DNA of 63,990 nucleotides, filler included, from Circinaria calcarea (lineage: Eukaryota), in assembly GCA_051942165.1 (NCBI GenBank). It is 3 parts of 3 records of this genome, joined end to end, with 100 filler letters (N's around TTAATTAATTAA, not from the genome) between each part and the next. Parts side by side here need not be neighbours in the genome. Positions count along the whole stretch, not along the records: positions 23,714 to 47,198 come from JAVECS010000119.1; 2 more parts are not named here. The stretch is one strand, 5' to 3'. Shown here piece by piece: positions 4,763 through 40,100 of the stretch. Made by a program: the position numbers and the translations under genes. The notes under the pieces are model-generated. The model was given only the letters and a program-made list of their open reading frames with translations. It had not been told where the DNA came from and ran no database searches. Position 1 is the first letter of the stretch, and each line of letters begins with the position of its first letter.

Positions 4763-7700
4763 TCAATAAAAGTCCACAATATCCCCAAACTCTGCAAGCA
4801 GTTCAGGGTCGATGCCATCTACCCAATTGGGCTTCGTATCTTGCGCTACATGTGTTTTCTGGTTGTCGATGTTTCTTGATGGCCGGAGTGACTGACCGCC
4901 ATCGGCGTCGTTAGAAAGTTTTCGCTTCTTCATTGGAGGCGCAATGCTCCACGGATCAGTTCGGGAATCGTCCATTGGGCGTCTTTTCATCTCCTCGGAG
5001 CTATGTAATTGAGAATTTTCCCGCCGGAGTTTCCTAGGACTGCTGGTATGAATGAATAGGAGATCGTCGTTAGGCAGTTTCTGAGACTTTTCGACGCTCT
5101 TTGTTGGTGCAAGGGATACTTGGGTGATCTCGTCCACCTCTGATTTCTGGGAATCTTGATCTCCAGTATACGTCTCCTTGTAATGGTATGCCGTTGACGC
5201 TTCTTTAGGATCTGGAGAATTATATCTCTCTGTCGGTTCTTGGTACCAATCGTCGGATGTTATGGGGACATCAAGGTCAACCATACCAGCTTCCAGCTCT
5301 GATACATCCTCGTCGAATTTCGGACTCGCAAATGGGTCATGGCTCGTTACGAGCCTACGGTCTCGAACTGGGGATGAAGGAGACAAAACAGCGTCCATCG
5401 GTTCATCTCCATAGTCACTTAAGGTCTCAACTTCAATTTTGTCAGATCCAGCGGCTTTCCCGAGGAATGAAATCTGAGTCTGGCGTCCCATAGCGAAGGC
5501 GGTAGATTTTTTGGATGCTATCACACGCGCCGGAGTTACATTCACAGTACTCTTGTGCAGTTTATCCAATGATTTGTAACCCGGGGGTCCAAATTCTCCA
5601 TAATCTTTTCTGGGTCTTTCCGAGGCTAAGTCGATGACATCGATCTTGCGAGGTTGAATCTCGCTTGCGAGCTTCTTGATTGTGAATTTCGAGGCCATGC
5701 TTGCCGAAGATTTGGAAGTTATCTTTTTCGGTTCTCCATGATTTCCTTTGGCGGCTGGTTTTATTGGTCCAACTGTCTTTGGCGGCTTTGGTCGCTTGTC
5801 GACACCTTCACGGCAGCACATGTGTTTGCAACTGTACAAAGTGAGCTTTCGCCATCATTGTATTTGGGCTTTCTTACTTTGTCTTATCTTTACATTTGTG
5901 ATTACAAGCCCATTTTCCATTACCCAGCTGCGTAGGTTCCCACCCTTCCAAATCTGCATGAGAGATATTGGGCAATGAAGAGGTGCGCTGGGATGCTGGA
6001 GAGATACCTTCCGCTTCCCTTGGGAATGACTCGATATGGTTAAAGTCCAGCCCATCCACTAAAGGCATAATAAGCATTTGGAAAGGCAAAAACCGCAAAC
6101 CATTCAAGAAGCCTTACCTGCGTCCACCATATCTCTATCATCAATGTCAGCGTCGAAGAACTCATCTACACTGCTTGCCCCATTGGGGTCTTTGTCAATA
6201 CTGGTTCCACTCTTTGTTCTCTTTCTTGAAACATTCATTCCCAAATTTCTGTTCAAGGATCCACTAATACGGTCTTGTTTGCGGATTGGAGCAGGTGGGA
6301 AGAGCGAATTTGGGAGATTAGGTTTAAGCTCCGCATAACGCATTGTACCCGCTATGATCGGCTTAGCAGAGTTTGTTACTGCATTAGGAGTATGACGCTT
6401 TACCAAAGTCATCGCACATAACGTAACAAGTTACGTATTGACTTGCGTTGACCAGGTCCGCAGAAAAGATTACATCTTGGCCGTTACCAATTTTCTTTGC
6501 GCTAGATATTGTAAGCATTGGCGGGATATCTGCTGGAATGCGCCCCTACCTGAAGCGCCTAAAGTCGATGAGATGCCCGTCCGATCTTTCTGCAACGAAG
6601 CATACGTAAATGTGTCTGCCATTAAACTCACTAGGCACCTTTTCGTTGAGAAAACCTAGCTCAGCCTTCAAGTCCACTTCAACAGGCTTTCCCATTTTGA
6701 TCTCCTGTAAGATGATTAGTCTCTGTGTTCCGATGTTAAGAGTATACGCCACGCCAAACCTTGCCCATCATTTTGACAGTAACTCTCAGCTTCGGAAATC
6801 TACTTAGATGCCCTAGAATCTTTTCACCGTGTCCGGGATTCTTATTGAGTAGAAGATTGAGCCGAGATGGCTCCGTTGCCTCCAGCGCTTCCAGGCTGTT
6901 GATGCCTGCAATTGCGAGCTTGCGTACTGCACTCAGACCAACAGTCGGGATTTGTTTCATTTGGAGCGGCGAATTGTCCCACACTCTGGCACCGAAACTC
7001 CGAGCAAGCTCCAAAGCATGCCTTGCTGCTGAACCATCTCGGAGATGCAGCTGGCAATCGATGAGACAACGTATCAATCGGTGAATGTGCGAGAAGATGA
7101 TAGCTCGATCTTGCTGATATTGTTTTCTATGCTTCGCGAACTGTTCATCGGAAGGGTAGTCGACTCCGCCTAGCTCGGCTTGAATGATGATGGACCGTTT
7201 TTGCATAGCTAGGGCAATATCAACCTTTATGGGGAATTTGATGCCATTGGCCGAGTTCAGTGCTTTATATAACGACTTTTCCCCTCCACGAAAACGAACT
7301 TCATGAAACTCCGCCGCTTCGCACAGTGCAGACAGCTAGAAAGTCAGTAAATCAAGTAGGTAGGCGTGAAAGGCCACCTACTATCTCTGAAATCTTGGCC
7401 TTGGGGGGAAGGCTGAGAAGAGAATTCATAGTCTCATATCTGATATAGTAACGAGCCATAGCATCACCATAGTCAGTGCAATTGAGGTGTCCATCGCCAT
7501 AGACCAAGTTCGTCCCTTGCAGCAAGCGAATGTCTCGTTCGCAAATTTGTTGCATCCTGTCATCCAGGTTCCATAATGCGGTATCGCCATCCAACTTATA
7601 GTGGTTGGGGTTCTGTGAAAGTCGTACATAGAGAAATGTACTAGCTAGCCAACGCTTCGCGGTATGTAGGTCGTGAACAGTGCCTAGACCTATTTCCGCG

Positions 7701-23613: not shown

Positions 23614-23713
23614 NNNNNNNNNNNNNNNNNNNNNNNNNNNNNNNNNNNNNNNNNNNNTTAATTAATTAANNNNNNNNNNNNNNNNNNNNNNNNNNNNNNN
23701 NNNNNNNNNNNNN
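23614..23713. other. Assembly gap with artificial six-frame-stop linker
   Basis: N44 + TTAATTAATTAA + N44, exactly 100 nt. Confidence 0.97.
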
Positions 23714-23999: not shown

Positions 24000-26570
24000 C
24001 GGCTCTACCCCCGATCCGTGGAATAGGGGGATTGTGGGTGGGGGGCTCCGTTGGTGGTTTTTTCTTCTTGGCCCTTTTTTTCATTCTGGTTCGCTCGAAT
24101 CCGTGTGGCGGGGTACTGGGTCGATTTGGCTGTTTTTCTCAAATCGGTCTGCTTGAAGGAACTTGCTGTTGTTTTTGCTGCAATTCGGGGGCTCTGTGTG
24201 CTTTCAATCTGCTTCGAGGAGGTCGTTGGTCTGTTGTTAGGGTTAGTCAATTATTCTTAGATGGCCGTTAGGTCCCGTCTAAGGGGGGGGAAATATGGAC
24301 TCTCCTGTGACTGTGGTGGAACTGAGTGTTGCGGAGGGTTATAGGATGTTCTCTGTAGTAACGGTGGGAATGGGCCACTGCCCGTAGATCATAACTCGTT
24401 CCTTCGGCTTTTTATTGACCATATGGTTTAACATGTAACCGGCGATCCAACAGAGCTTGGGACTCTTCAAGCCGAGCTAGAGGGGCCAAGCTGTACCTGT
24501 CGCGGTACACAGGCGCACCTCTATCTGCCTTGGTTTTTGTAAAGAAAAACGTCAGACCCCGATCATTGTTCTTCTAGTACCAGCGGTTGATATTCTTTGA
24601 CTAATGTTCCTTACTTCACCCGGTTGGTTAAGGTTTCCAGCCCGAGGTGGGCGGACATGTGGCTGAGTCGTCTATGCTTGTTCTGATCCATTCGGCAGGG
24701 AATCGTGGGCCTTTGAAAGATTAACTTCTTGGCGCCGACGCCTGTGGGTCGCTGTTTAGAACGTCGGTGGGTTGAGATATGGTCACTTATTCTCCGCATC
24801 GAGTTCCTCCTTTAGAAGTAGGGCGGGAAGTTTTTTTCATCCGGATCGTTGTCAAATTTGGTGCTGCCAAGCTTGACAGGACTCGTTCCAACACAGAGGC
24901 GGTCTGACTTCCGCGAATGTGCAGTGATTCCTTGCATAGCTTGCCTCGGTTTGTGTGAGAGAGAGAACCGGTAGCTACGAAGCCGAAATTTATCTAAACG
25001 AGTCGCCCTGTGTTCTCTATGGTATTGTTGGAATGTGTGCAAGAATAGCAGAGAGGGATTGTATGAATAATCCATCTAATCCTGATATTTGGTTCCTGTG
25101 AGGTTCTCTTTGGGAAATACCGTATGGGTGCAGATGTTTCATCGTTGTTTGATATTGTTTTCAAGTGCTCAAATCAGCTCACCCTCGCTAGTTTTATTCA
25201 TTCAATTGGAATGCCTTTAAACCGCACTGCTTTCCAAAGATTTCGGACAGTTCTTCTATCTTGGTCGAACGCCCCCGGAAAGTTTGGTCTTTATTGCCCT
25301 TCCGATATTATATTTAGCAAACCCCAGGTGTACTCGATTGGTTTGAGAGCCTTGAGCATCTTCGGCTGTTAACTATGGTTGTGTTGGCGTGCTTATGGGT
25401 AGTTAGCTAATGTACGCTGTGATGATCTCATCTGTAATCTATTATGTAAGTTGTAGAGATCGAATATCATTTTCTCGGATGTTGACACCAGTATACTCGA
25501 TGGTGAAACATGCTTGAGAAGAGTTTTGTAGGTAGGAAAGTAACTTTTCTACCAAAATGTCGGCGGAGTGTGTAACAGGCGTGTTTCCTGGACATATATC
25601 CATCGACTACTCCGTTTCTTGCATAATAGAAACGTAGCGATTGGACCTAAATCCATCGATTGTTTCATGTCTTGCATGATGGAAGAAATGGTGGCTAGAC
25701 CTAAGTTTATAATAATTTCCGTGTCTTGCACAATAGGGGCATTCGGAATGATCATCAACATTGGTGCAAGAGTGTTGAAATACCAGTAAAAATCGCCGAG
25801 CGGGTTTCGAGAAATTTGCAAGGGAGATAAAGTGCTAAAGTCGGCGTGGTAGCTGGAACTTTACCGTTGACAGATAAGGAGAGATAGCATTCCATTCGTT
25901 CGCCGCACAAATCCTGCCATACCAGGTATTCTTCTCTAGGAGGACGCGGTAACAGAGGGGAGTAAAGGAAACACAGTCTTCTAATCTATGTCTCATTTCT
26001 ATTATTCCTAGAAGATAGTGTTTATTGTTTGGAGGTTCGTCCGGCGCGATGATGAGCTTCTGGTAGATTGATTTATTGCAATCAAGAGATCCTACTCCAC
26101 AACGGGCTCTCCTGGCGGTCCTGGCGGTCCTGTTAGAGAGGGTCCTGGTAGAGGCGGTGCTGGTAGATGCAGGTACATGGTAGATCTAGAGGACCTAGAA
26201 GTATCTTCAAAGAATATAGCCGCTGTAATGACTACGGAGTTTCGAGGCACCATATGATATGCAAATACCACTTCCCCTAGCCCGATATTCGGCATAGCCG
26301 GCCAGATTTGATCTTTTGAAGCGGCAATCTTCTCAGATCTGTCTTCGGTAAAGTTTATGCTCATAACACAGGATCTTTTTCGATTTCTCGACGAACGCGA
26401 CTAGAAATTTTCCTGACTCGGGGCTCCTTTCTTTATACGCCCGGTTTAGATAGCAACTCCGGAGTGAACATAAGCCACTGAGTAATCCCTTCTCTAAATT
26501 ATTAGAAGAGTTGGGCAAATGAGTAAATATACGGCCCAATTTTTTCATGAAAGTGATGACTCCCACTAAG
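24000..26570 (-). pseudogene. Decayed SNF2-family helicase/ATPase gene
   Basis: Eroded motifs in the correct order: 'LGEVVFAYHMVPRNSVVITAAIF' (motif I-like, ~26.25 kb); 'IFDLYNLHNRLQMRSSQRTLA' (motif II-like, ~25.43 kb); '*LTA..ML...WGLLNII' (motif III-like, 25375-25310); 'SPKLCWIAGYMLNHMVNKKPKERVMIYGQWP' (start of HelicC, 24464-24372). Many stops and frameshifts. Confidence 0.55.
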
Positions 26571-26941
26571 CTTATATGCAGTAAGTAGTCCAGATACGAC
26601 AGCTACCCCAGTAAAGGACAAGACAGGTTTAATATACTTTTCCCATTAAAACATACCACCCTTAAGCCAAAAAGGGCAAGGTGCCACATCGCGTCACCAC
26701 AAGAAAACTTCTCCTCCTTGCGCAAATTAGCTTATCCTTGAATTCCGGCGGCTTAAGAAGGGTGGGTTGTCTTTTCTTCGATAATATACATGCCCCGGAG
26801 TTTATTCGCAGGTCGAGTCTAGGTACTGATAGTCAAGGCCTTTGTTTTAGGCTTGAAGAGTCTATTAGAGTCCGCTCCAGGTCGTGGGTCCAATGTATTA
26901 AATCCAATGCATGGGCGGTTGATGGCCTTTTACGGCTAGCA

Positions 26942-27455
26942 TCAGTTGCTAGTTATCATAACTATTTCCCCGGTCATCATCCGGCGTAATAGAGTAATTA
27001 GATGCATGTCTTTTTGTTGAAGGGTTACACGCTTTGCGTGTATAGCGCATAGATTTGCCACTGCAATATTCAATTAATATATTAAGTGAAATAATTTACT
27101 TAGAATACTAACTGGAAAAATCGTTTACCAAGAAGCTTTCTGTAGCTTCTTGTATTGCTTCCATCGCTGATGACTGAAATCGTAGATCTGACCGACAACA
27201 CAGCTTTAAGTGAGGATTCTGAATAAGTCTAGTGAAAAGGCCGACTGGAAGCTCTTCCTGACTTTGCTTTCTCCCTCCTTCGGACACTCCTTTACGCTTC
27301 TTATACTCTTTTTTCTTTGCTGCTATTTAACCTAGCAGGGCGACGATTCGAGCACGTAGCGTCTAGTCAATCGTACAAATGAGAGAATGCGTGCAATAAG
27401 AGGAGTAGTCCTTGGCTAAGGAAGAGGAAAGCCGTAGGTTTACTCCCTTTGGCAT
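26942..27455 (-). CDS. Divergent histone H3-like protein (histone-fold core open; N-terminus uncertain, possibly a pseudogene)
   Basis: Spliced translation 'ELPVGLFTRLIQNPHLKLCCRSDLRFQSSAMEAIQEATESFLVNDFS|MANLCAIHAKRVTLQQKDMHLITLLRRMMTGEIVMITSN*'. GTTAGT..CAG intron at 27112-27061. Candidate ATG at 27455 not confirmed. Confidence 0.85.
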
Positions 27456-27589
27456 TTCGATATGCAGTTGTTCAGCAGAGCTCTCTTCGGTAGAGTCAGA
27501 AATGGTACTGGTTATATATACACCTTGATAAATCAACGATGTTTCTTGACTCCCTTCAATGAAGTTGAACAGATCCTAAGTCTTCGCTT

Positions 27590-29000
27590 AAATGGGTCGA
27601 GTATTGGTTCTCAAGGTTTGGATCGAGATTGACTTGGTTCTCCCCAGCAATATTGCCCAATAAACGGAATTGACGAATCCCCTTTCATGATTTGAAAGCA
27701 GTTGCTCAAAGCGATGGACATGGTGTGAAAAGCTGTCTCCGTGATCGCAACAAGCAAGACTGCCAATGCGGCTCATAAATACACTACCACACAGCGCTGC
27801 GTTATCCAAACCACCAGATTTCTTAAACCGGGAACGGAGTTCCGCGCTTGAGTAGATTAGCCTAGGTGAGAATATGCTAAGAAGCGAGTGTACTTCGTTC
27901 CCGAACGCGGAACGGAAGCCTATAGCCGCAAGATAGAAAATATGCTGGGATATTGGTCCAGAGCTTCGACTTTACCTCTATATCCTCGCCATATTGGTGT
28001 TCACTAGGCTATGTGATTGGCTTCTCAATTTTTCGACTTCCCAGTTCCATCTTAATTTACTCTCCCAGTGAACAGCTTCAATCGGTCGCTTCTTCCCTTC
28101 AGCCGCGCTACACCTTCCTTCAGGAAATATGGCACCCGTATAGAGACCGCTGAAACGCGCTGCATATCTCGACTTTTTTTTCATAATAAGACGAGGCTTT
28201 CAGCTCAATTGCTTCAGGTTGAGCTCCTATCAGCCTTTATTTACCGTGCGCTGCATGGTCAGCTATCAATCTCCAAACGTTGTCAAGAACTGAAAAGCCT
28301 ATTGGAAACGTCTCACCGTGTCCCGGCAGACGATTGTGGGACCTAATGACATCGCTTGTAACATCCATGCCATAATTGGGCAGGAGTCTAATCGTAAAGC
28401 TAGATGGGATCGCCATGCCGAATAAAGCCCGTGTGTTTGCGATTCATGGAGCGGTGATTTTTTAAAAGTGGTGCGTACTAATCGTCTTTCTCTGACAAGA
28501 GGTGTGCATAACTTCTGTGAGAAACTTGGTTCAACAGGCTTTGTAACGTTATTAGCCAATAATCCACATAGTAACTTCAAATTTATATAAAGGTCTTTAT
28601 ATCTTTTCCTGCTAAGTAGCAAAACCTGTATGTGGGAAGCGGTCGCGATGTGGGGGAAGGCTGCATGCGAGGAGGAAGCGACATCTCCACCCGCGTGGAT
28701 ATTAGGTATTTTATTGACCCAGGGGCCATTCTAGCAGCTCCTACAGACATGACCACCATTGCATATGGTGCTTGGTCCCATAGAGCCTTGTAGACATCTT
28801 TCCATTGTTCCGACGTGGTGAGATCCGACATGCAGCCATTTTGATTCATGCATTCTATCTTCTCCCTGACAATGTTTGATCACACAAGGAACTAACACTA
28901 TACAGTTGTGAGGTATATAGATACCTTGCTTTGTAGCTGTTGTGTCAATGGATGGCGTTCCCCTACCCACCTGGTCGGTTTGACGTACTTTTCGATCATC
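27590..29000 (-). pseudogene. Decayed gene of unknown function
   Basis: Overlapping protein-like ORF fragments (28583-28849, 28299-28622, 27978-28184) broken by stops, with an intron-like GTATCT..CAG near 28.9 kb. Confidence 0.35.
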
Positions 29001-29213
29001 GTGGGTGACAAAAACTAGTTAAGCTCCCGGAAAACTGTTAGATAAATACCAAAGCTACCCCGGAAAGGACAAAAGCCCAGAGTGCAGGGTCAGAAAGTCT
29101 CCCTTTCTTTTAGTCTTTTAAAGCGAGCTAGTAAGCCGGCAAAATCATTATTATTAATTCCCGCAAATTTGGTTTGCTGGTGCTTTGCGACTGTATTGCT
29201 GATATACTGATTT

Positions 29214-29960
29214 TTAATTCGCCACATCTCTGACTATTACCACGAGAAGCTCCAATCTGGTGGTGTTAGAAAGTCCGACGATGTTACAATACTGGAAAAA
29301 CTTGTAGAAAGCGTTGTAATAGTCGTGATTATCGAGTGTCGGGACGGTTGATTTTCCATCTGAGCTGTAGATGCTGAAGGCATGCAGGAACTTTTCATAG
29401 TTGAAGAACGCACGACCAGAAACAAAACAGCTATACCTCGTTGCCATAGCTTTCCTGTAGCTTTTATAGTATCCTAGTCATGGCACTGATCACAGCGCTC
29501 AACTATTGGACAATCCATCTAGGCCATACACCCCTCAAAGCGTCCGTGAGTCCCACCGGCCAGTGCTCCTGATCTTTAGCCAGGATAACGCCCAGCATCC
29601 CCGGGAGTCTCGTGAGAATCAACGCTATTGATCACGTTGGGTTGATGATTTTCATCGTCGTAGGTCTGAGAAGTGCGAGTATCGAGGCAGCTCATCTGCG
29701 GGTAGCTTTCTCGTTGGCAGCTTCAGCACGCCACTGATCTTTCTTTTGTGCTTAAAGACGCTTGCGAGCAAACTAGGATGGCATATGCTTGAAGATGGAG
29801 TTCGCTCTATCATCTAATAGACCTCGTTAATGCATCTTCGGTATCGTGAAAGTCCTTAATGATATCGTCATAATGGCTTACTCTCGGTCGTCCAAGAAGA
29901 CCATATGCCGGCTAGGGTCATCAGTTTCACGAGGAGGAGTGGCGGAGTCAACGCTTACTC
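29214..29960 (-). pseudogene. Decayed gene of unknown function
   Basis: Protein-like fragments in shifting frames (e.g. ORF 29214-29447; 'GMLGVILAKDQEHWPVGLTDALRGVWPRW'), same orientation as the neighbours. Confidence 0.3.
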
Positions 29961-31149
29961 ATATCTTTCCAGGGAGTATTGGCGGGGGGTCGGTGGGTGG
30001 GAGACAGGTGGCGCATGTATGCTGGTGGAAGGGCGTCTTACACTGGGCGTATTTGCCAAGCCCCACGGTGTCCTCCCGGGAGGTCTGCGTTTCAACCCGA
30101 GAAAAGTGATTATTATCCCGCTCTCTCTCTTCAACACATGCTCCTGGCTCGAGCAAGCGCTGTCTGGCCACATTCAATTAATGTATATTCGGGAAATTCC
30201 CGTCACCCTATCCGTTTACGGAAGATCCGGAAGTCTTGCTGAAGGTTAGAAAAATGATACCAACTAAGCACAATCCACACCCCGTATATGAGGTTCTGAA
30301 AAAACAACTCTTAGCGTACTGCAGCGCTTTGCATCGTTGTCTGCTTTTCATCTCCCTGAGCATAACATGAGTTAATCAACATTGATATTACAGGCCAATG
30401 CCGTTCGTAATTCGGAGAATACTGATAGCCTTTGCGAATGTATGCCGCAATAAGTAGTACCTTGCTGGAGATGACTCGCTTATGTGCGGCTGTAAAAGGG
30501 ATGGCTGTGGAGAAAGCAGAGGAGACTGAAGACTCTCGTTACTCCTGACCTTCTCTGTCTCTACACCTTAAACAGGACCCATCCTCTTATTTCCTCGCCG
30601 AAGCCACATTGCTCTTAGATCCGTCGTAGTAGCTCCGACCAGAGGACTCCAGTAAACAAGTTATCATCATGCCCTTCTTTTGTCTCCTCCGAGAGGATAT
30701 GACAACGTAAGGTAGGTCATCATATCATCTTTTCGGGTGTGCCGCACATAGATACCAAAGCCCTCGGGTCTCGAGGCTTTCAAGGAGATGCGACGTCGAG
30801 GCCTAGCTTAATGCAAATGGTTGGCGCTCGGGTCCGAGTCTCCAAGTAACAAAGGCTCATAATCCTTCATCTGAAACCTCATCCAGCAGAGCCGGCCCCG
30901 GCTACATTCATCCCAGCTAACTCTTCCACCGACATGCCGGAGCAGAATGGGAAAAGTGGGGACCATCTAAAGAAGAGAGCCGCAGACCAGCCGAGCACTT
31001 CCAGCTCTACCAAGAGATATGGCTGACGTTACAGTGCATTCCTGCCTCTGTGGAAACATATACCGGAGCTCCGATATTTATCGATATGCCTTTAATTGCC
31101 CGAGCACCAAACACCTCTTCCAATGGCATTTGTGTGATATTTCACATCC

Positions 31150-34050
31150 CCTATCTAGTCTGCTCTCTCAAGTTAACCCTTGGGTTCAATAAGCCGTAGA
31201 GGTCAGGCTTTGGTTTAGCTGAAAATAACGATTGTATAGTTACCAAGGGTCGTGCTTGTCGCCGTACCGACAATAGGTTTATACCCTCTTTCGTTCAATG
31301 ATTATTGGGATTACTTGTTGATCCGCTTTGTCCGTCAAATGGATTCAACGATGCTCTCTCACAGATGAGACATCCTTAGCAATGTTCTGATCGTGTGCCG
31401 TGTTTTTTTCCCTTTCGCTATAATTGTACCACGATAAGTAAAGGCCACCTTCTTGTCACATTTTTTTTAGAGACCTTTTGTTTCTTGAACCGATCAGAGC
31501 GAAGCTACTCAGGCTTATGAAGAAACATAAGTTCTTAGTACACCGTAGGATTGTATCCATTTTATGCTGCTCAGCGAAGCTAAGCCACTGCAACTTTCAC
31601 TCCCGGTATCCTAGTCCGACGGCATGGGACGTCCGTGGACGACGATGAAGTCGTCAATAAACTTGACTAGTAGATCAAGGTAACCCCCCAAAACAGAAGT
31701 CTTCCAACCGTTTTCGACCTCCAGACCAAGCAGATCTGCGGTTTCAATCACCTGATTGCCAAGGACAAATTTCACCTTCCTTGGTATGGCATCATGATAC
31801 ATTTCCATTAGAAATTCAATATCAACGTGCGACAGGAACGACCACCAGGCCAATTGTCATTGGGCAGTAACCCCCGTTGCCAAAGTCACCATAAACGAGA
31901 CTTTTCGCCATTGAAATAAGAGTCAGGAGTATGTACCTGAGCGCCGTTTCAAAGAACGCGACTACAAGCAGTGGTTCCGAGCAGCCTTCACGCAGGCTAG
32001 AGTGATTCGTAAAGGTTCCAAACCTGTTTCTCCCTCGTGTTTATGGTATAGGCCCGGAGTCCCGGTATTCTGACGACGCCCTACCGCTGGGCAGTTTGGG
32101 CCGGATTATTGCGTTTATTTTCCGCGTAGTATTTAGTATTCGGTCCACACTGATCGTTCTTTCTCTACTATTTTAAAATAGTATACCAAGACCCTGAGTT
32201 CTTTCGCGGTTGAACCTCGTCGTCGTATATCTCGAGCATCAGAACCGAAAAATGACCAATTATCCGATACCTATAATCCTATTCATGCAAACCAGGGATA
32301 TACGACTTCTATACGTCCTAGGTAGATTATTTCTCATTTTTATTAAAAGATTCCTAAAATAAGTGGCTTAATAATGCAATAAAAACACCTAGAATGTCGA
32401 ATTATAGAAATCTGTCACACTTCCTCTGGTTTCCCTCCACGTAATACGATGTTAGTTTACTAGTTTATAATCTCCACAAGACTGACTTACTTTTTGTAGG
32501 GCCAGGGGCTCTACGATTCCCATAGTACTATGGCCTAGTACAGAGAATCTCTGAAGTATCTTGTATAGTTTTCCGCTCATCTGACGTATACGAAGAAATG
32601 ATTATTTTCTTGGAACTTTCAGGCTCTGGTTTAATTCCTCTATTCTTTATAAGTTATTAAACCCATCTGCTCAGGCCTAGTAGCCATAAAGTTTTAGTGC
32701 CCTATGATTGAAACTCTAGAACAACCGTGAATTTGCGGCATTCCCGTATCCCCCGTGATTTTCAAACCCTTCAGGCTGCATATTGTCTTCTCTGTCAGCT
32801 GTTATAAGGATCCAGTGGTTCTCAAGAAAAATCCACTGGAGCAACAACTAGAGAGTCTTGATATCATAACTGTTTCCTTTACATTGGAGCTATTGCCTCT
32901 AGTACTACGGTGAGAGGTTTAGCCATCTGGCCGGCAGACTAATAGTATCGGCTCCGAACCGGAGTATGTTTCAGTTATTCTGTTATCAGTGAGTATAGCA
33001 CGCTCAAGGCATCATTTTATATTTGACCTAGCTCGCGTTGAATAACTGGTTAGATATTTAACCCTCTTTAGGTGAGTCAGAATTTCTAGAAGAGCTTGCC
33101 ACGTGAGCCGTAGATTAGCCAAAGGCAGTGATTTTTAGGATCAATTGCATTACGCTGATAATACAGTACTGTCTTCCAAGATCTTGTGAGCAGTACCCCT
33201 TGCCGGTTTCTTCTGGGGCAGGACGCTTGGGTTTCTGGATGTAGCTATGATGATGGACTCTTGCTCGTTTCGGAGATATTCCTAGTGTGGAGAAAAAAGG
33301 TCTAAAAGACATCGAGAGACACTAGGAGCCACAAGTCGAAGTAGTGGTGAAGTATTCCATGGCTCTTCTCTATGTATATTCGACCAAGAGCGATATCAGT
33401 CAGTATAGTGTCGGTGTGCCTAAGGAGGCTTCGATGTGAGGTGGAGTACTCCCCTTAATTGTTGCAGCCCAAGATCCTGGAATGGCTTTGAGCCTCCCCT
33501 CCTCTCAGGAAATGGTATCTCGCTAGCTTCCTATCCCAAACAATAGATACGCCTTGTTCTTACACGGAAAGTTCGTAGCATAAGATACTAGCGGTAGAGA
33601 AAGTACTTGCTCCACTATTGACTTCACTCACAATTCTCCTATACCGCTCTAATCTCTCACCGAGACCCTACCCTCTTATCATCCCCCGCAGAAACCCATG
33701 GTATTATACTGTAGTTAATAGCCTAGAGATACTTGAATTCTCATGTCTGAGTCGAATCCTTCGAGAGAATGGATGCTATCCATTCTCAATTGTCCCATAC
33801 CGCCGCCAGCCAAAGGAGAGAGGTGTGAGGATGGCAGAGAGGGTCGAGAAACAACCCTGAAGTTATCTCAATATTACTTACTCTTGGTAAGAGCTCAAAT
33901 GGCTGTAGGGAACATGAATCTGCTAAGAGGGTTTGTGAAGATGAAAGGAATAAGAGCTAAATGTGCAGGAGGTTATCGGCTCGAGGCCGGAAGGGGTTCT
34001 ACAAGTACGTCATTCAGGGACCAAAGGCTTCCATTCGAGAAAGTGGTCAT
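31150..34050 (-). pseudogene. Long decayed gene with a C-terminal Ulp1/C48 peptidase-like segment
   Basis: 'VKFVLGNQVIETADLLGLEVENGWKTSVLGGYLDLLVKF' (~31780-31660) resembles the I..DL..L....WL...VI..YL.LL start of Ulp1-type domains. Upstream fragments are stop-riddled, and catalytic His/Cys motifs are not clearly recoverable. Confidence 0.4.
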
Positions 34051-34783
34051 ATATAAAGTACTGTACGAGCCTACACGTTGCGAGTTCTAAGTAGCGATGC
34101 AACGGTATCCTACATCCGTCGGCAAGCCTGTGAGATGCGCAGAACACAGTAAAGCTGCGCCTTTCATAGCTAACAACAGTCTACAATAAGCTCGCTCCAA
34201 AAAAGCTAGCTACAGTGACTGCTTTTCTAGGGTAGCAGGCAGCCAACACTGCTACATGTGCCAGCATTCTCCCTTTCATATTCCCAGTAGATTTTCGTTT
34301 CCCTCGACCACCAAACCGGTCCCGAGGGGATTTCTCAGTCGTTTAAGAAAAGTGCATAGGAAAGAAATTCTAGTTCACCGCCCAAATCGCAAGCAAGCAA
34401 GCATACTTATGTCGAAGGTATTCAGAAAAAAGACAAAGAAAACTCATAAGCTCGTTCCAAGTATCTTAGTAATCTAGGCACGTAGTGAAACTGCATGCAG
34501 CGCCAATAAGAGGGCTGGTCAAGATATGTAAACAGTCAACAGACGAAGCTAGATGCGGGTATGTGATGACCGAAGCAGATCATGTATCGCGTATTTCATG
34601 CCGCCCAGTCAATGGTGATAGGAAATTTATTCCCCGCTCAGTGGATATTTTGACCTCAAAATCAACTAATTGGCGGAAAGAATGCCATCGAGCACAATCC
34701 CAAGTGAAGTCAAACGCACATCAAATGCGGGGCAGGGAGACGTTGGCTCGGCTATGAGCCGTCGCCGAGGTAGCCACGCTGGT

Positions 34784-37173
34784 TTATATTTGCCCTTGTA
34801 GCAAGTGCTGAGCCTGTATCAGCTGACTGGGAGCCGCCATTGTCATGCTTGGCCCTGCCAGAGGCCCTCCTAATGACATGCTCACTCCATTTCCAGACAT
34901 CGTGGTGACGTTGGACAATGAACTTGGTAGGTAGGTATGGCTCTGGTTTGGTGATTCTTCGTCGAGCACACCAAATTCGTGTTCGTCATTCTCGAGATCT
35001 TCGTCGCTATAACCTCCAATTTCGCCATCAGCACGAGGCTCATGGATTCGACGATGTCTACAAGCAACAAATTAGCCGAGAATCGACATCACTTCTTTCA
35101 CGGAGGCAAGGTGTACTAACTGGGCGAGGTTATCAGATCGTGAAAATGCCTTGCTGCAGTGGGGGCAGATGTATGGGCGCTCTTGAGTGTGGGTCCGTAC
35201 GTGCCTAACCGCCGGCATGCAAGGTCAGCGGCTGCAGGTCGCCCCACGTCAAACCACCCGCAGTAGAATCAACTTACCGTTTTAAATGCTCTAGACGCTT
35301 GAAAAGGCGCCCGCAAGTGGGAATTGGACAAGAATGTGACTTCTGCGGGTAGGGACCAAGTTCCATCATAGTAGCACTTCGCGCCCGACGAATGGGGCCT
35401 GATCGGCCAGTGGGACTGGTATTGAGTGAGTGGGGTGTCAACTCATCGTGATAGCTCGAGAAATCGTCATGAGGTTGCATCATGGTCACATTTTGGTGCG
35501 CTGGACTGCCTTCCATAGTGGGCAGGGGTGTGCCCTGACGGGAGAGTTCGAGGAGCTCTTTATGATGCGCAATCATACTCGAGTAGCCGTTGGTGAGAGC
35601 TGGTGGAGAGTTGCAATCGCCTTCATCACCTTCAGCGACCGGGCCCACTGAAGTGGAAACAGACCGGCGAAGATCGCTTGAGCGGTGCGGTGCATGTGGC
35701 ATCCCGTTTGCAGCGACTGCTGCAACGGCCGCCCCGACACCAGGAGGAATCGATGAGCGTCGCCTTCGTTGCTTATAGGTGGGTGAGCCTTCTATGACCG
35801 AATAGACATTATTCGAAGGATAAGATCGTGTGCTAGATGAATATTGTGTGCCTCCAAGGTTCGATGTAGGTAACTGCATCATGGGATGATAGGTATGTGA
35901 AGAGTTTACATCGTGGATTGCGGTATAAAGACCTGTGTCTTCGTTGGCGATGTATGCTGGCTCTGTTCCAAGGTGTTGCGCATGTTGAGGTGGAGTGACT
36001 GGCTCGAAAGAAATACCGCGATTACTGTAGTCTTCGTACTGCGAAGACACAAAGGACGGCGCGGGAGAGTATTCCATGTAAGCAGGCATAGAGGTATGGC
36101 GCTGATGAGCTCTAGAGAGGGGTACTCCGTTTCGATCATACTGTATCTGCCCATAATCCTGCTCCCGTTTTACCAAACTAGACGCTATAGTTGAAGGCAT
36201 CGAAACTTGAGAGTACGCAGCCATTGGATGGATGATTTCTTCCGAGGCGTTGGATATTGATTGCGGTACAAGTGATGGCGGCGGCATCGAATCAACGGCT
36301 CTTATTACAGGAGAAGTTGACTGCGAATATGCATTCCCGGTGTGCGTTGAAAACGATGATGAGTTTGCTTGTTGCGCCTTGGTAAGCTGCTCGAATAGCG
36401 ATTGCGACGAATCAAACTCGAACGATAGCGCTGGCTCGTTCACCGCCATGGTCGTCGCTTCCTGTCCCATTTTCTCCCTCTTGAGATCTCGTTCCAGGGC
36501 ATCGAGGAAAAGCCGGTCATGAGGAACGCTGTACCAATAGAAGACTTTCTGCTTTTTCTGGGTGCGAATACAGTTGTTCTTGTAAAGGAAGTCGAGAAAA
36601 GGACTCTTCGGCTCTTCGAGTGAAGCATCGGTCCCAGACTTCAAATTGCGCAGATCAGAGAAGATACCTTCCTCGAATTTCTTCGAATTCTTCACCGGTC
36701 GGCCGAAGGCTTGGAACCTGAAGGAGAGGCATCGCACAATGTCTGTGCCTGAGATGTGAAAGAGGTTATTCCTACGTCGCCGTGAGCAAAAGTCAAGCAG
36801 GACTCTGGCGGCAGCTCCACTGACCACAGAACACAGGAGACATATTCGCCGGTTGGAAGCAGGAACCTTCGGATATACTGATCTGGCGTCCAGTCGACAG
36901 GAGCAGATATAAGAAAGTACTTGACTACACCACGGTGTCAGCGACGTTGCTTGCCAGCATGTGACGTTTGGTTGGGATCCTGTCTGTAATCCCATCTGTA
37001 ACGTGCGACAGAACTCGTGCTGATACAGCGAGCTCCAGGTGGTACTCACGATTATCAACTTGCTGGAGGGCTACCTGAGCGTCCTGTGGTAAGCTCTGTT
37101 GGGCTTCGTTCGAAAGCATAAAGGTTTCTGGTTTCTGAGGCGGCGCCATTGCCGCGTGATTTTGGGAATACAT
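34784..37173 (-). CDS. steA: Ste12-like transcription factor (STE homeodomain + 2 C2H2 fingers), 5 exons (37173-37050, 36924-36825, 36771-35278, 35204-35121, 35057-34784)
   Basis: '[12 protein letters not shown]', '[35 protein letters not shown]', '[23 protein letters not shown]', '[21 protein letters not shown]'. Confidence 0.97.
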
Positions 37174-40100
37174 GGTGAAGCCTTTTTCGCTGGAGATCCA
37201 ACCCCGTGCTGACAGTATCTGTGACTTGATCTGTATAAGGATGTTGCGCCTATAGGGTTGGTGCCAGGTCAGGGAGGCGGTGCTCGTAGCGTCCTCGAGT
37301 CCACACACGGGAAGATGGAAGCAGGTAAGCCACCGACTCGATCAACGGCAGTAGCAAATAGAGAACAGAAGCGACCGTGGGGTATCTGAGGTTCGGATGA
37401 TACGGCAGGGTATGATGAGGGCCTGCCTCTAACTGTTGCGGTTTGGGGAGGTGTCGGAGATGGAGCGCAGACCTGCCCGGCTTCCTCACCGAAGCGTTAT
37501 GACCGAAAGATATAAGGGTGCTGGGTAGAAATGGAAGTAAGAAACCAACGTCAATCACGAACGACCCTCGCACGAGCCAATTCACGATTCTACGGCGAGA
37601 AGGTCGGGGGGGATTTTGGTGGCCAAGGGGATGAAGGACGACGAGGTGGGATTTGCAAGATGGAACAAATCCGAGGGCCAGCAGGCGATACGTCGGAAAA
37701 CCGGGTGGAGTTTGAGAATTGGAGCGAAACAAGCGCCGAAGGGGGAGAGCCGCTTTTATTTTCCCTTAGCTGATCCTCAGACCATCAGGGGTGGCTGGAT
37801 ACCCCCGGTCCGGCTTAATCAGTAGCCCGAACGGCTTGACGAGTAAGAGTCGGCGAATGACGAGCTGTGAATCTACTGGCGAACTCCCTCATGCGATGGA
37901 TATCGACGGGATCATTGGTGGTTGATACCCCCTCAAGTGCACGTGCTGATCACTCGGGCGCCCTCCCCATCCTAATTCTAATGGCTGTGCGGCGACACCG
38001 ACGAATACCATAGAGTATCACCCCAACCCAGAAAAATCCCCACAGGCAAGGAAAATGGGTTGGAAATTTGGAATCGATGGCCGAAGTTTGGTGACCGACC
38101 GCCTGCCGCGACAGTCAACTTGGGCCTAACTTTGGCCAGCGAGGGTATTGCCGGGTTGTGCAAGGGACTTGTAGAACGGGAGGCGTAGGCGCAGGTACGA
38201 TTGGACTCAGGCAAGAATATCATTACAGAGTGCCCTACGATTTCATTGACAGGCTCGGGAATCAAGTAAAGGTCATTTGGGGGTAGACTGGGGGAATGAG
38301 GACCGCCGGAGGATGATTACTGCCCGATGACAGCTTGTCGCGCGGGGAACGAATCAGTATTGGCCATGGTGGGCAGTGATGGAAGTTGGACGCCTAATCC
38401 TCTCCGTGTCGGTGATGCAAGAGGATGACTTGGTCGAGAGATCGTGGCAGTAAGTCCGTATTGACGACTTTTCAAGGTTCGCGTTAGAGGATGTATGTGT
38501 CCGAATGGGGAATGGGCCGTAGGTCAACCAAGTATCTCCGTGCTCGTCGATGAAACGGTAGATCAGGGGTATCGCTTGAATTACGGCCACTTTATCCCTC
38601 CAAAACATGTGCTTCTGTAGGTGATCCAGGAATGGTGGGAGAGCCGATGTTATTCGCTGCCGGAATAGGATGGTGGGCAGATGCGCAATATTCTGCATGG
38701 GCTTGCCATCTAGGGACTCTAACCAATCAGGCCCGGGTCGAACCGTGTACTTTACCATCCTGGTTTCCAAGACATGACTGAGCCGCCCGATCGGTGCCAC
38801 GGGTGTACTGTTTAACATCGTCTTTGAAGTACCGCATATAGCACATGGAGCTTATGTGCTATCCGACACAGCACTCAGTAGTACAGATGTGCTGATCGGC
38901 CGCCAGGAGCTCATTATCTATATATTCTAGACTCTGAAAAATCCAAGGACAGCGCTGTATACGCCTTAGGCTCAGCGTGGAAGTTCGAAATTCAACAATG
39001 GCTTGACAGGCCCACTGTACCGACTGGATGCATTTTTGCATTATCAATATGAATTAAACTAAAGCGCCGTGCTCAGTTATACTTTGCTTTTTCAAGAGAC
39101 GGAAAGCCGCCTCACCGCTCTCCGTGTCAAAGGAAGTAAGACCAGGTCTTTGAAGCTCTAAGAATACGGAGTAATCGCAGTCTCGTGCTCGACAATAAGA
39201 GGAGCGGTAAACAGCAATCCGATGGTCCAGTGTCGAGCCACGACTTCACAGGATAAGCCAACGTCTTACAGTCGTAGTCACAGTCAATCGGAAGGAAGAT
39301 CCAGCAGCAACGGTAGTAATGTGGCTAGTCTTACAGGATCATGTAGTCGTACCGTAACTGAAGGATGGTGGTGGTCTTCCAACTTTCTTTCGTCACCAAA
39401 CCGGCGGACGGCGGGTTGCACTCACAGGAACGATTCATCTGAAACGTACCCATGACACGCTTACCTTCCCCATGTTGCTATATTTACCCTTCTTCTAGAC
39501 TACCTCGGCAGCGTTTCGCCGCCATCAACGGTTTCGAGCCAATCACAACCATCAGATTTAGCGTTGCGCTTGACGAATCGTTAGACTCCCGCGTTGAATA
39601 CCTCTGCGACAACTGTTGGTGGCATAACCGAAGAATCACTTTGATCTTCCGAGCACGCTCAAAACCAATAGCTCGAGGTATGTATTAGATATGAGGAGGC
39701 GGATAGGTACCTTCACTACACAAAAGGGCGCAGATCCCGCCGCCTAGAACTGCAGACAGATTATCCCCGTTAAAGGAGAAGACTTAGCTGTTGTTCTTGC
39801 GGGAAGCGTGCCGCTGTTGGAGTACTTGTGCCTATTTCTGTACGTGCGAAGTGCCTCCTGCCGGGCATGGAGGATTGGCTCCGAAGCTACTGCGGGTCTT
39901 GGCAGACCTACAGCACGACCTCATGGCTCGAGCAGAGGGGAAAACCCATCCCCTTTCTCTCCCCTCTACCGTTTCTGAAGCGAAGCGGGTAAAGCCCAAG
40001 GCTTGTTTCTGACCATTTGTCCGGAGCTTATGCAGGTACCTGCTGCAGCGGGCACCCTGCGGCTGACCATGTCGTCTTGTAGAGGCTGGCTACACGGGAG

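Follow-up and report, generated by a model that had tools for sequence, protein, structure and literature searches.

Locus and genomic surroundings

On the minus strand of the window, the whole 64-kb stretch of Circinaria calcarea DNA that was analysed (63,990 nucleotides), two open frames at 27326-27113 and 27060-26945, with a GT..AG intron of 52 nt between them, encode a sequence of the histone H3 family. The first frame (27326..27113) is preceded by a TAA at 27329-27327. Pfam PF00125 was run on each of the two exon pieces: the 71-aa piece (exon 2) matched with an E-value of 2.4e-5 and 25.0 bits, just missing the cut-off of 26.4, and the 38-aa piece (exon 3) matched with an E-value of 4e-6 and 27.5 bits, above that cut-off. 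When canonical H3 was used as tblastn query against the 64-kb window, the locus was the single place found (E 1.9e-9). Based on the Pfam matches to each piece and this tblastn E-value, the H3-family sequence with its 52-nt intron is confirmed as real and not a chance match.

A Ste12-like gene (35075-37308, minus strand) precedes the H3-like gene by 7.7 kb in the same orientation and comprises a main ORF (35274-37070), an STE domain (PF02200) and a C2H2 zinc-finger exon (35075-35224). Between 24.2 and 35.0 kb, the 11 kb around the gene, there is no ORF of at least 150 aa. Besides the H3-like frame and the Ste12 zinc finger, the 118 stop-to-stop ORFs of at least 45 aa at 24.0-35.3 kb gave six Pfam matches at chance level (E 0.003-0.043, each under its own cut-off). 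Neither H4 or another histone-fold ORF, in agreement with the first-pass annotation, which had seen no adjacent H4 gene, nor a transposase, reverse transcriptase or other mobile-element domain was detected among these 118 ORFs. Within 23-36 kb, the assembly linker formed the only direct or inverted repeat of at least 30 nt, and the gene locus (26.7-27.7 kb) has no similarity to the rest of the window.

The gene-poor interval 24200-35000 is unusual in an otherwise gene-dense window and has a GC content of ~0.455, compared to 0.487 elsewhere. Halfway through a run of N at 23614-23713 stands TTAATTAATTAA, with a stop codon in each of the six frames; the run looks like a contig-joining linker, so that the sequence left of 23.6 kb may not be contiguous with the rest. 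The Rfam search gave one hit in the window, at 1473-1666 on the minus strand, where a U2 spliceosomal RNA gene is present in full length (RF00004, 152 bits).

Gene model and flanking signals

The best model reads, in the direction of transcription, as follows. A TATA-like box, TATATATAA, is located on the minus strand at 27512..27520, 57-65 nt upstream of the candidate ATG, where it may serve as promoter element; this exact sequence occurs once in the window, and matches of the looser TATA[AT]A[AT][AG] number 11 over the two strands of the 64 kb. Candidate exon 1 (27377..27455) starts with the ATG at 27455, comprises 26 codons plus one base and begins with MPKG. It is followed by candidate intron 1 (27323..27376; 54 nt, GTACGA...TAG) and by exon 2 (27113..27322), which encodes a degenerate αN, α1, loop 1 (DLRFQSSA) and the start of α2 (QEATESFLV). 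Intron 2 (27061..27112; 52 nt, GTTAGT...CAG) interrupts in phase 1 the codon aligned with H3 D106, and its excision gives the exact H3 spacing from FLV to NLCAIHAKRVT. Exon 3 (26945..27060) encodes the end of α2, loop 2, α3 and a C-terminal extension of 13 residues, and is closed by a TGA stop codon at 26942..26944. An AATAAA at 26801..26806, 136 nt after the stop, is a possible polyadenylation signal. All these features are on the minus strand. The exons of 79, 210 and 119 nt give 135 codons plus the stop, and the predicted 135-aa product has a pI of 9.66 and 21 lysines and arginines.

Exon 2 has no in-frame ATG upstream of α2, so a 5' exon is required and the whole model hangs on candidate exon 1. 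The 26 residues predicted from this exon have no likeness to a histone tail and no homology support. All 5' models were enumerated by combining every upstream ATG with each in-frame GT and each AG located between 27345 and 27280. One of the 25 resulting models (ATG 27455, donor 27376, acceptor 27323) has an intron of 46-70 nt. As reference, candidate introns joining long open frames of neighboring genes were collected (n = 9, after two antisense to the alanyl-tRNA synthetase ORF were dropped); seven of them measure 46-70 nt, a range into which the 54- and 52-nt introns of the H3-like gene fit. A clean CTRAY motif near the 3' end is present in six of the neighboring candidate introns and in neither intron of the H3-like model. 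Candidate intron 1 is the weakest part of the model: its donor GTACGA has no T at +6, it has no clean CTRAY branch motif, and its acceptor is a tandem TAG-CAG (27320-27325) that offers in-frame sites 3 nt apart (27323 and 27320), with a difference of one codon.

Other 5' ends were set aside. Models from the ATGs at 27776, 27721 and 27688 were dropped because they need introns of 311-378 nt and donors GTCAAT or GTTTAT. A first exon of four codons (donor 27443) is possible, but it requires AAG, GAG or another poor acceptor and an intron of 129-147 nt.

The first-pass annotation had placed a divergent H3-like gene at 26942..27455, split by an intron at 27112-27061, with a candidate ATG at 27455 and an acceptor near 27323. 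Its coordinates, strand and frame were right, the two frames do join across the intron with H3 spacing restored, and its proposed 5' end coincides with the only enumerated model that has an intron of usual size. With a TATA box, an ATG, introns of usual size and an AATAAA, a coherent transcription unit can be drawn, in which transcription and the first exon are predicted features.

Alignment with canonical H3

The alignment with H3 can be traced from about K36 to R131, with about 44 of 96 residues identical to canonical H3 (~46%). Exon 2 covers about K36 to F104 and has lost three residues at one place and two at another and gained two at a third; all three gaps are multiples of three. Identity is not uniform but clustered in unbroken runs of 8-9 and 11 residues. 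DLRFQSSA, which is loop 1 with R83, and NLCAIHAKRVT, which covers the end of α2 and loop 2 with C110, H113, K115, R116 and T118, are identical to canonical H3, and QEATESFLV is present in the first part of α2. Further residues kept are F67, R69, L70, the QEA.E..LV of α2, K122, D123, L126, L130 and R131.

Outside these blocks the fold is damaged. The αN helix (PGTVALREIRRYQKSTELL in H3) is unrecognizable, with scattered identities, a deletion of three residues and a GG pair in its place. Two residues are deleted before F67, and α1 is followed by an insertion of two residues that include a proline. R63/K64, R72, R128 and R129 are lost in the alignment, and the added proline stands at the end of α1. 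As the two extra residues align between α1 and loop 1, the α1/loop 1 region is longer by two residues than in H3 and loop 1 may be slightly longer. After the position of R131 follow 13 mostly hydrophobic residues unrelated to H3, which has four or five residues there. A frame-shifted reading of α1 (RKSFQS, +1 frame) was set aside since it needs a net insertion of 17 nt, against 6 nt for the in-frame alignment.

No remnant of an ARTKQTARKS-like tail was found by tblastn with canonical H3, near the gene or elsewhere in the 64-kb window; the lone tail-like match, 21 residues on the plus strand at 7320-7382, is at chance level (E 6.0). As this tail is absent, so are K4, K9 and K27. The core motifs quoted earlier (DLRFQSSA, QEA.E.FLV and NLCAIHAKRVT) are thus all in place, and the strongly altered αN/α1 region, the missing tail and the slightly extended C-terminus were all described correctly; candidate exon 1 does not resemble the tail either. 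The statement that loop 1 is not obviously lengthened as in CenH3 calls for a slight correction in view of the two added residues. The claim that a protein devoid of the K9 and K27 contexts could not carry heterochromatin marks is sound as sequence logic, and would apply on condition that the protein is produced and incorporated into chromatin.

Search for relatives

An exhaustive HMMER search with the 71-aa exon against 1.84 billion cluster representatives yielded 17 proteins at E ≤ 1e-3 with 44-51% identity. Seven of these 17 were inspected and all proved to be concatenated or duplicated ordinary H3. In the JGI metagenome contigs, 17 loci were retrieved, which comprise ordinary H3 and other variants of H3 and reach 40-74% identity in the best matched segment. 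No relative closer than ordinary H3 was found among the 1.84 billion representative proteins or the JGI metagenome contigs. Word-based searches of 5.8 billion clusters (longer and similar lengths) gave no match to the H3-like exon, and the ESM Atlas returned only generic histone clusters for exon 2 (scores 0.87-0.91). One metagenome H3 variant (loci L008/L009, ORF from ~2581), of eukaryotic origin, has a normal-looking tail and about seven extra residues in loop 1.

Relatives of the fungus are nevertheless represented in the same protein collection. The neighboring Ste12 ORF matches proteins there at 93-97%; its nearest named homologues come from the lichen-forming Xylographa opegraphella (86%) and Lambiella insularis (84%), with many further Lecanoromycetes among the named matches. 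The nearest Atlas clusters of the alanyl-tRNA synthetase in the window are ascomycete. Since no relatives were found although the lineage is sampled, the gene is either restricted to a narrow lineage or was never called by gene predictors. This lack of relatives speaks against a function conserved over long times, and no other observation counts more heavily against the gene. Full-text searches of the literature, judged mostly by search summaries, likewise gave no paper that describes a tail-less H3 paralogue from filamentous fungi.

Selection or decay

A neutral-decay simulation was started from the natural H3 coding sequences of metagenome loci L003 and L012, both of which were mutated down to the observed identity. 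Each was used for the 96-codon stretch and for the 65-codon core, resulting in four set-ups of 2000 replicates each. The frame stayed free of stops in ~6% of the replicates for the 96 codons and in 23-24% for the 65-codon core. An identity run of at least 11 residues was left in 0.4-0.55% (96 codons) and 1.5-1.75% (65-codon core), and runs of at least 11 and at least 8 occurred jointly in 0% and 0-0.05%, respectively. The patchy identity thus argues for past selection on the protein and against uniform neutral decay, which rarely leaves such runs. We conclude that the H3-like protein sequence was probably under selection during much of its divergence.

The codons of the conserved blocks were compared with those of 11 genes in the window. 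Six of 19 block codons end in G or C, and both leucine codons, the isoleucine codon and the valine codon are the least-used synonyms. With this codon choice, the blocks do not resemble what recent copying of, or gene conversion by, a strongly expressed histone gene would leave, in a test that is weak (p 0.08 if the GC3 of the parent was 0.5). The codon log-likelihood ratio of the H3-like gene is 0.10, against 0.13 ± 0.06 for gene segments and 0.04 ± 0.06 for intergenic ORFs; because codon bias in this genome is weak, codon usage is uninformative.

The closest contender, which we hold to be a serious possibility that falls somewhat short of even, is a non-functional relic: a partial H3/CenH3 duplicate that lost its 5' part and is unexpressed, its frame kept open by luck or by recent death. 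Such a relic would explain why neither an orthologue nor an annotated protein was found in proteins and metagenomes when relatives are sampled, why the homologous exon has no ATG and no tail remnant, and why αN and α1 are damaged. The uninformative codon usage and the low GC3 of the gene (0.38-0.41, versus 0.50 in the 11 window genes) point in the same direction, as does the frequency at which the core stayed free of stops in the simulations. The weak splice signals and the position in 11 kb where no other coding sequence is recognizable likewise speak against a living gene. Its open frames carry little weight too: stop-to-stop frames in the adjoining non-coding DNA reach 90-143 codons, so the 72- and 43-codon frames are not unusual by length, and the earlier argument of an open core amid neighbors full of stops is weak. 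An extra H3 copy with an unrelated N-terminus has a precedent in 'H3_2' of Aspergillus oryzae, as it appears in the supplementary alignment of Yun & Nishida 2011 (PMC3029354). Against simple decay stand the identity runs of 11 and 8, the rarity of which under uniform neutral decay (0-1.75%) is given above, the fact that every indel is in frame, the retained GT..AG ends and normal size of the intron, and the position of the TATA box, ATG and AATAAA in the right places. A relic of a formerly selected variant, however, looks the same as a living variant by these data, and we consider a functional tail-less variant and a relic to be at about even odds.

Repeat-induced point mutation (RIP) was considered as source of the divergence. 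The composite index is negative for 24.2-35 kb (-0.23), which means that the region has no strong RIP signature and that RIP is rejected for it, and is marginal for the 579-nt locus (+0.11), where the slightly positive value would suit a relic. A processed (retro-copied) pseudogene is contradicted by the 52-nt intron and by the lack of flanking repeats.

H3 versus CenH3 ancestry

The comparison with CenH3 was made by eye against the supplementary alignment and the intron table of Yun & Nishida 2011 (PMC3029354). This alignment carries no CenH3 labels, and rows with RWQS and long divergent N-termini were taken as CenH3. In these rows, all fungal CenH3-like sequences have RWQS, an αN of the form RY[KR]PGT.AL.EIR and LPF[AS]R; those of Pezizomycotina additionally start with MPPK, end with RRIRG.WGG and have 3-6 extra residues in loop 1 (PMC3029354).

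The H3-like gene shares features with both sides. It does not have RWQS, with W at H3 position 84, but reads RFQSSA with F84 as in H3, and the CenH3 αN and LPF[AS]R[LV]V motif are absent. RFQSSA, Q120 and L130 are H3-like. A95, F99 (E[AS]FL in the rows; ESFLV here), Q121 and the replacement of Q68 by T are CenH3-like, as read by eye from the rows of PMC3029354, and T96, A107 and L119 are common to the rows Laccaria H3_10, Malassezia H3_3 and Ustilago H3_3 in the same alignment. The gain of two residues at the loop 1 boundary is smaller than the 3-6 extra residues of the Pezizomycotina CenH3-like rows (PMC3029354). In structural searches, the best 60 of 178 PDB matches to exon 2 (E ≤ 1) are all H3, with no CenH3 among them. 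Exon 3 fits both about equally: the best H3 among the solved structures scored 26.5 bits, and Schizosaccharomyces pombe Cnp1, which holds both the second and the third rank of 167, scored 26.1 bits.

The position of the 52-nt intron, in the alignment column of H3 D106, is 'site 26' of PMC3029354. Four introns are tabulated there for this site, including those of Cryptococcus neoformans H3_1 and Ustilago maydis H3_3, which were assigned by column number, and of Laccaria bicolor H3_10, assigned by tab count. In the same table, site 26 is free of introns in the H3 and CenH3-like genes of all 10 Pezizomycotina species, and the introns near H39/P43 and L70/V71 of those Pezizomycotina genes are missing from the H3-like gene (PMC3029354). 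Judged by these residues and introns, the gene is not a typical fungal CenH3, and a CenH3-like descent appears as defensible as descent from H3. The earlier decision to set CenH3 aside was sound in so far as RWQS and the conserved αN are lacking, and too quick in view of the two extra residues at the α1/loop 1 boundary, F99, A95/T96, A107 and the intron at the D106 site.

That the gene is a fast-evolving resident CenH3 of this fungus is improbable. The extra residues between α1 and loop 1, the replaced Q68, the residues matching fungal CenH3-like rows (A95, F99) and basidiomycete rows (T96, A107, L119), the intron shared with Cryptococcus H3_1, Laccaria H3_10 and Ustilago H3_3, the near-equal scores of exon 3, the non-H3 tail with its extended C-terminus and an MPKG start that faintly resembles the MPPK of Pezizomycotina CenH3-like rows would all suit such a gene. 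The features found throughout the rows of PMC3029354 (RWQS, a conserved αN and LPF[AS]R) and the RRIRG.WGG end of the Pezizomycotina rows are nevertheless all missing, the best 60 PDB matches of exon 2 are H3 without exception, and a resident CenH3 would be expected to have annotated orthologues in relatives, whereas nothing closer than ordinary H3 was found among the representative proteins. Least probable of all, and marginal, is a gene fragment that a mobile element carried in or that was acquired from a different fungal lineage, for example a basidiomycete. This could account for the intron site and residues common to basidiomycete CenH3-like genes and for the 11-kb surroundings devoid of recognizable genes, but is opposed by the lack of mobile-element domains among the 118 ORFs, of repeats (linker aside) and of resemblance between the locus and the rest of the window, and by the absence of a close donor sequence in the protein and metagenome searches.

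Proposed origin and meaning

Judged from its sequence, the locus is a previously unannotated, strongly diverged H3-family paralogue in an ascomycete that apparently forms lichens. Our preferred reading, to which we assign a probability of roughly 0.48, is a lineage-restricted, strongly diverged H3/CenH3-family paralogue shaped by selection on its DNA- and H4-binding core. An H3/CenH3-family gene would have been duplicated, after which selection would have retained those elements of the fold by which DNA and H4 are gripped, namely loop 1 with R83, the end of α2 and loop 2 with K115-R116-T118, the α3 residues D123, L126 and L130, and, in the H3-H3' interface, C110 and H113. After the duplication, the N-terminal tail would have been replaced, αN would have decayed and the length of the α1/loop 1 region would have changed. 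If translated, the product would be expected to pair with H4 and to bind nucleosomal DNA along its central turns. The ends of nucleosomal DNA are held by αN contacts; a product lacking these contacts as well as K4, K9 and K27 would be expected to form loosely wrapped particles that are invisible to tail-directed marks. A more specific version, which we regard as rather unlikely, is a third fast-evolving H3-family gene in lichen-forming ascomycetes, an old H3/CenH3 duplicate that keeps an intron of the basidiomycete CenH3 type and whose product, without tail and αN, would pair with H4 in particles with loose DNA ends that could carry no K4, K9 or K27 marks.

The repertoire of H3 variants is small and for the most part old, comprising H3.3, CenH3 and some lineage-specific forms in testis or pollen. 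To our knowledge, filamentous fungi are generally held to possess H3 and CenH3 only. If the gene is selected, it would be a new histone variant for a poorly studied fungal class, and an H3 fold devoid of tail and αN would offer a natural experiment on a nucleosome without the main sites of heterochromatin and Polycomb marks. If it is a relic, it would show how a histone copy decays, with the DNA- and H4-binding blocks persisting longest.

Comparison with known systems

Among non-canonical core-histone paralogues in ascomycetes, H4E is an H4 variant of unclear function that is described as widespread through Pezizomycotina, expressed, nuclear and interacting with H3 (PMC10878826). The H3-like gene resembles H4E (PMC10878826) in belonging to this class of paralogues and differs from it in being known from sequence alone, with no orthologue found. 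Aspergillus oryzae 'H3_2' is, in the alignment of PMC3029354, likewise an extra ascomycete H3-family gene with an H3-like fold and an N-terminus unrelated to the H3 tail. Its fold is nearly identical to H3, which marks it as a young copy, whereas the gene described here is ~46% identical in a patchy manner. The row illustrates that partial H3 duplicates exist in other filamentous ascomycetes (PMC3029354).

With fungal CenH3 (CENP-A/Cse4/Cnp1/hH3v), the gene has in common a non-H3 N-terminus, a slightly longer α1/loop 1 region, an extended C-terminus, a replaced Q68, F99, an A107 of the basidiomycete type and the D106-site intron of three basidiomycete genes, as far as the rows and the intron table of PMC3029354 show. 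It differs from CenH3 in having no RWQS, conserved αN, GDP.P motif or RRIRG.WGG end, and its divergence greatly exceeds that of every CenH3-like row in the same alignment. From the H3 genes of the 10 Pezizomycotina species in PMC3029354 it is set apart by its intron site, which they do not use. Compared to canonical H3 (fungal hH3), it has no tail with K4, K9 and K27, no recognizable αN and no paired H4 gene seen beside it, and carries a C-terminal extension; what it shares with canonical H3 is the histone fold from α1 to α3, with DLRFQSSA and NLCAIHAKRVT identical, and, at a predicted 135 aa, nearly the length of H3.
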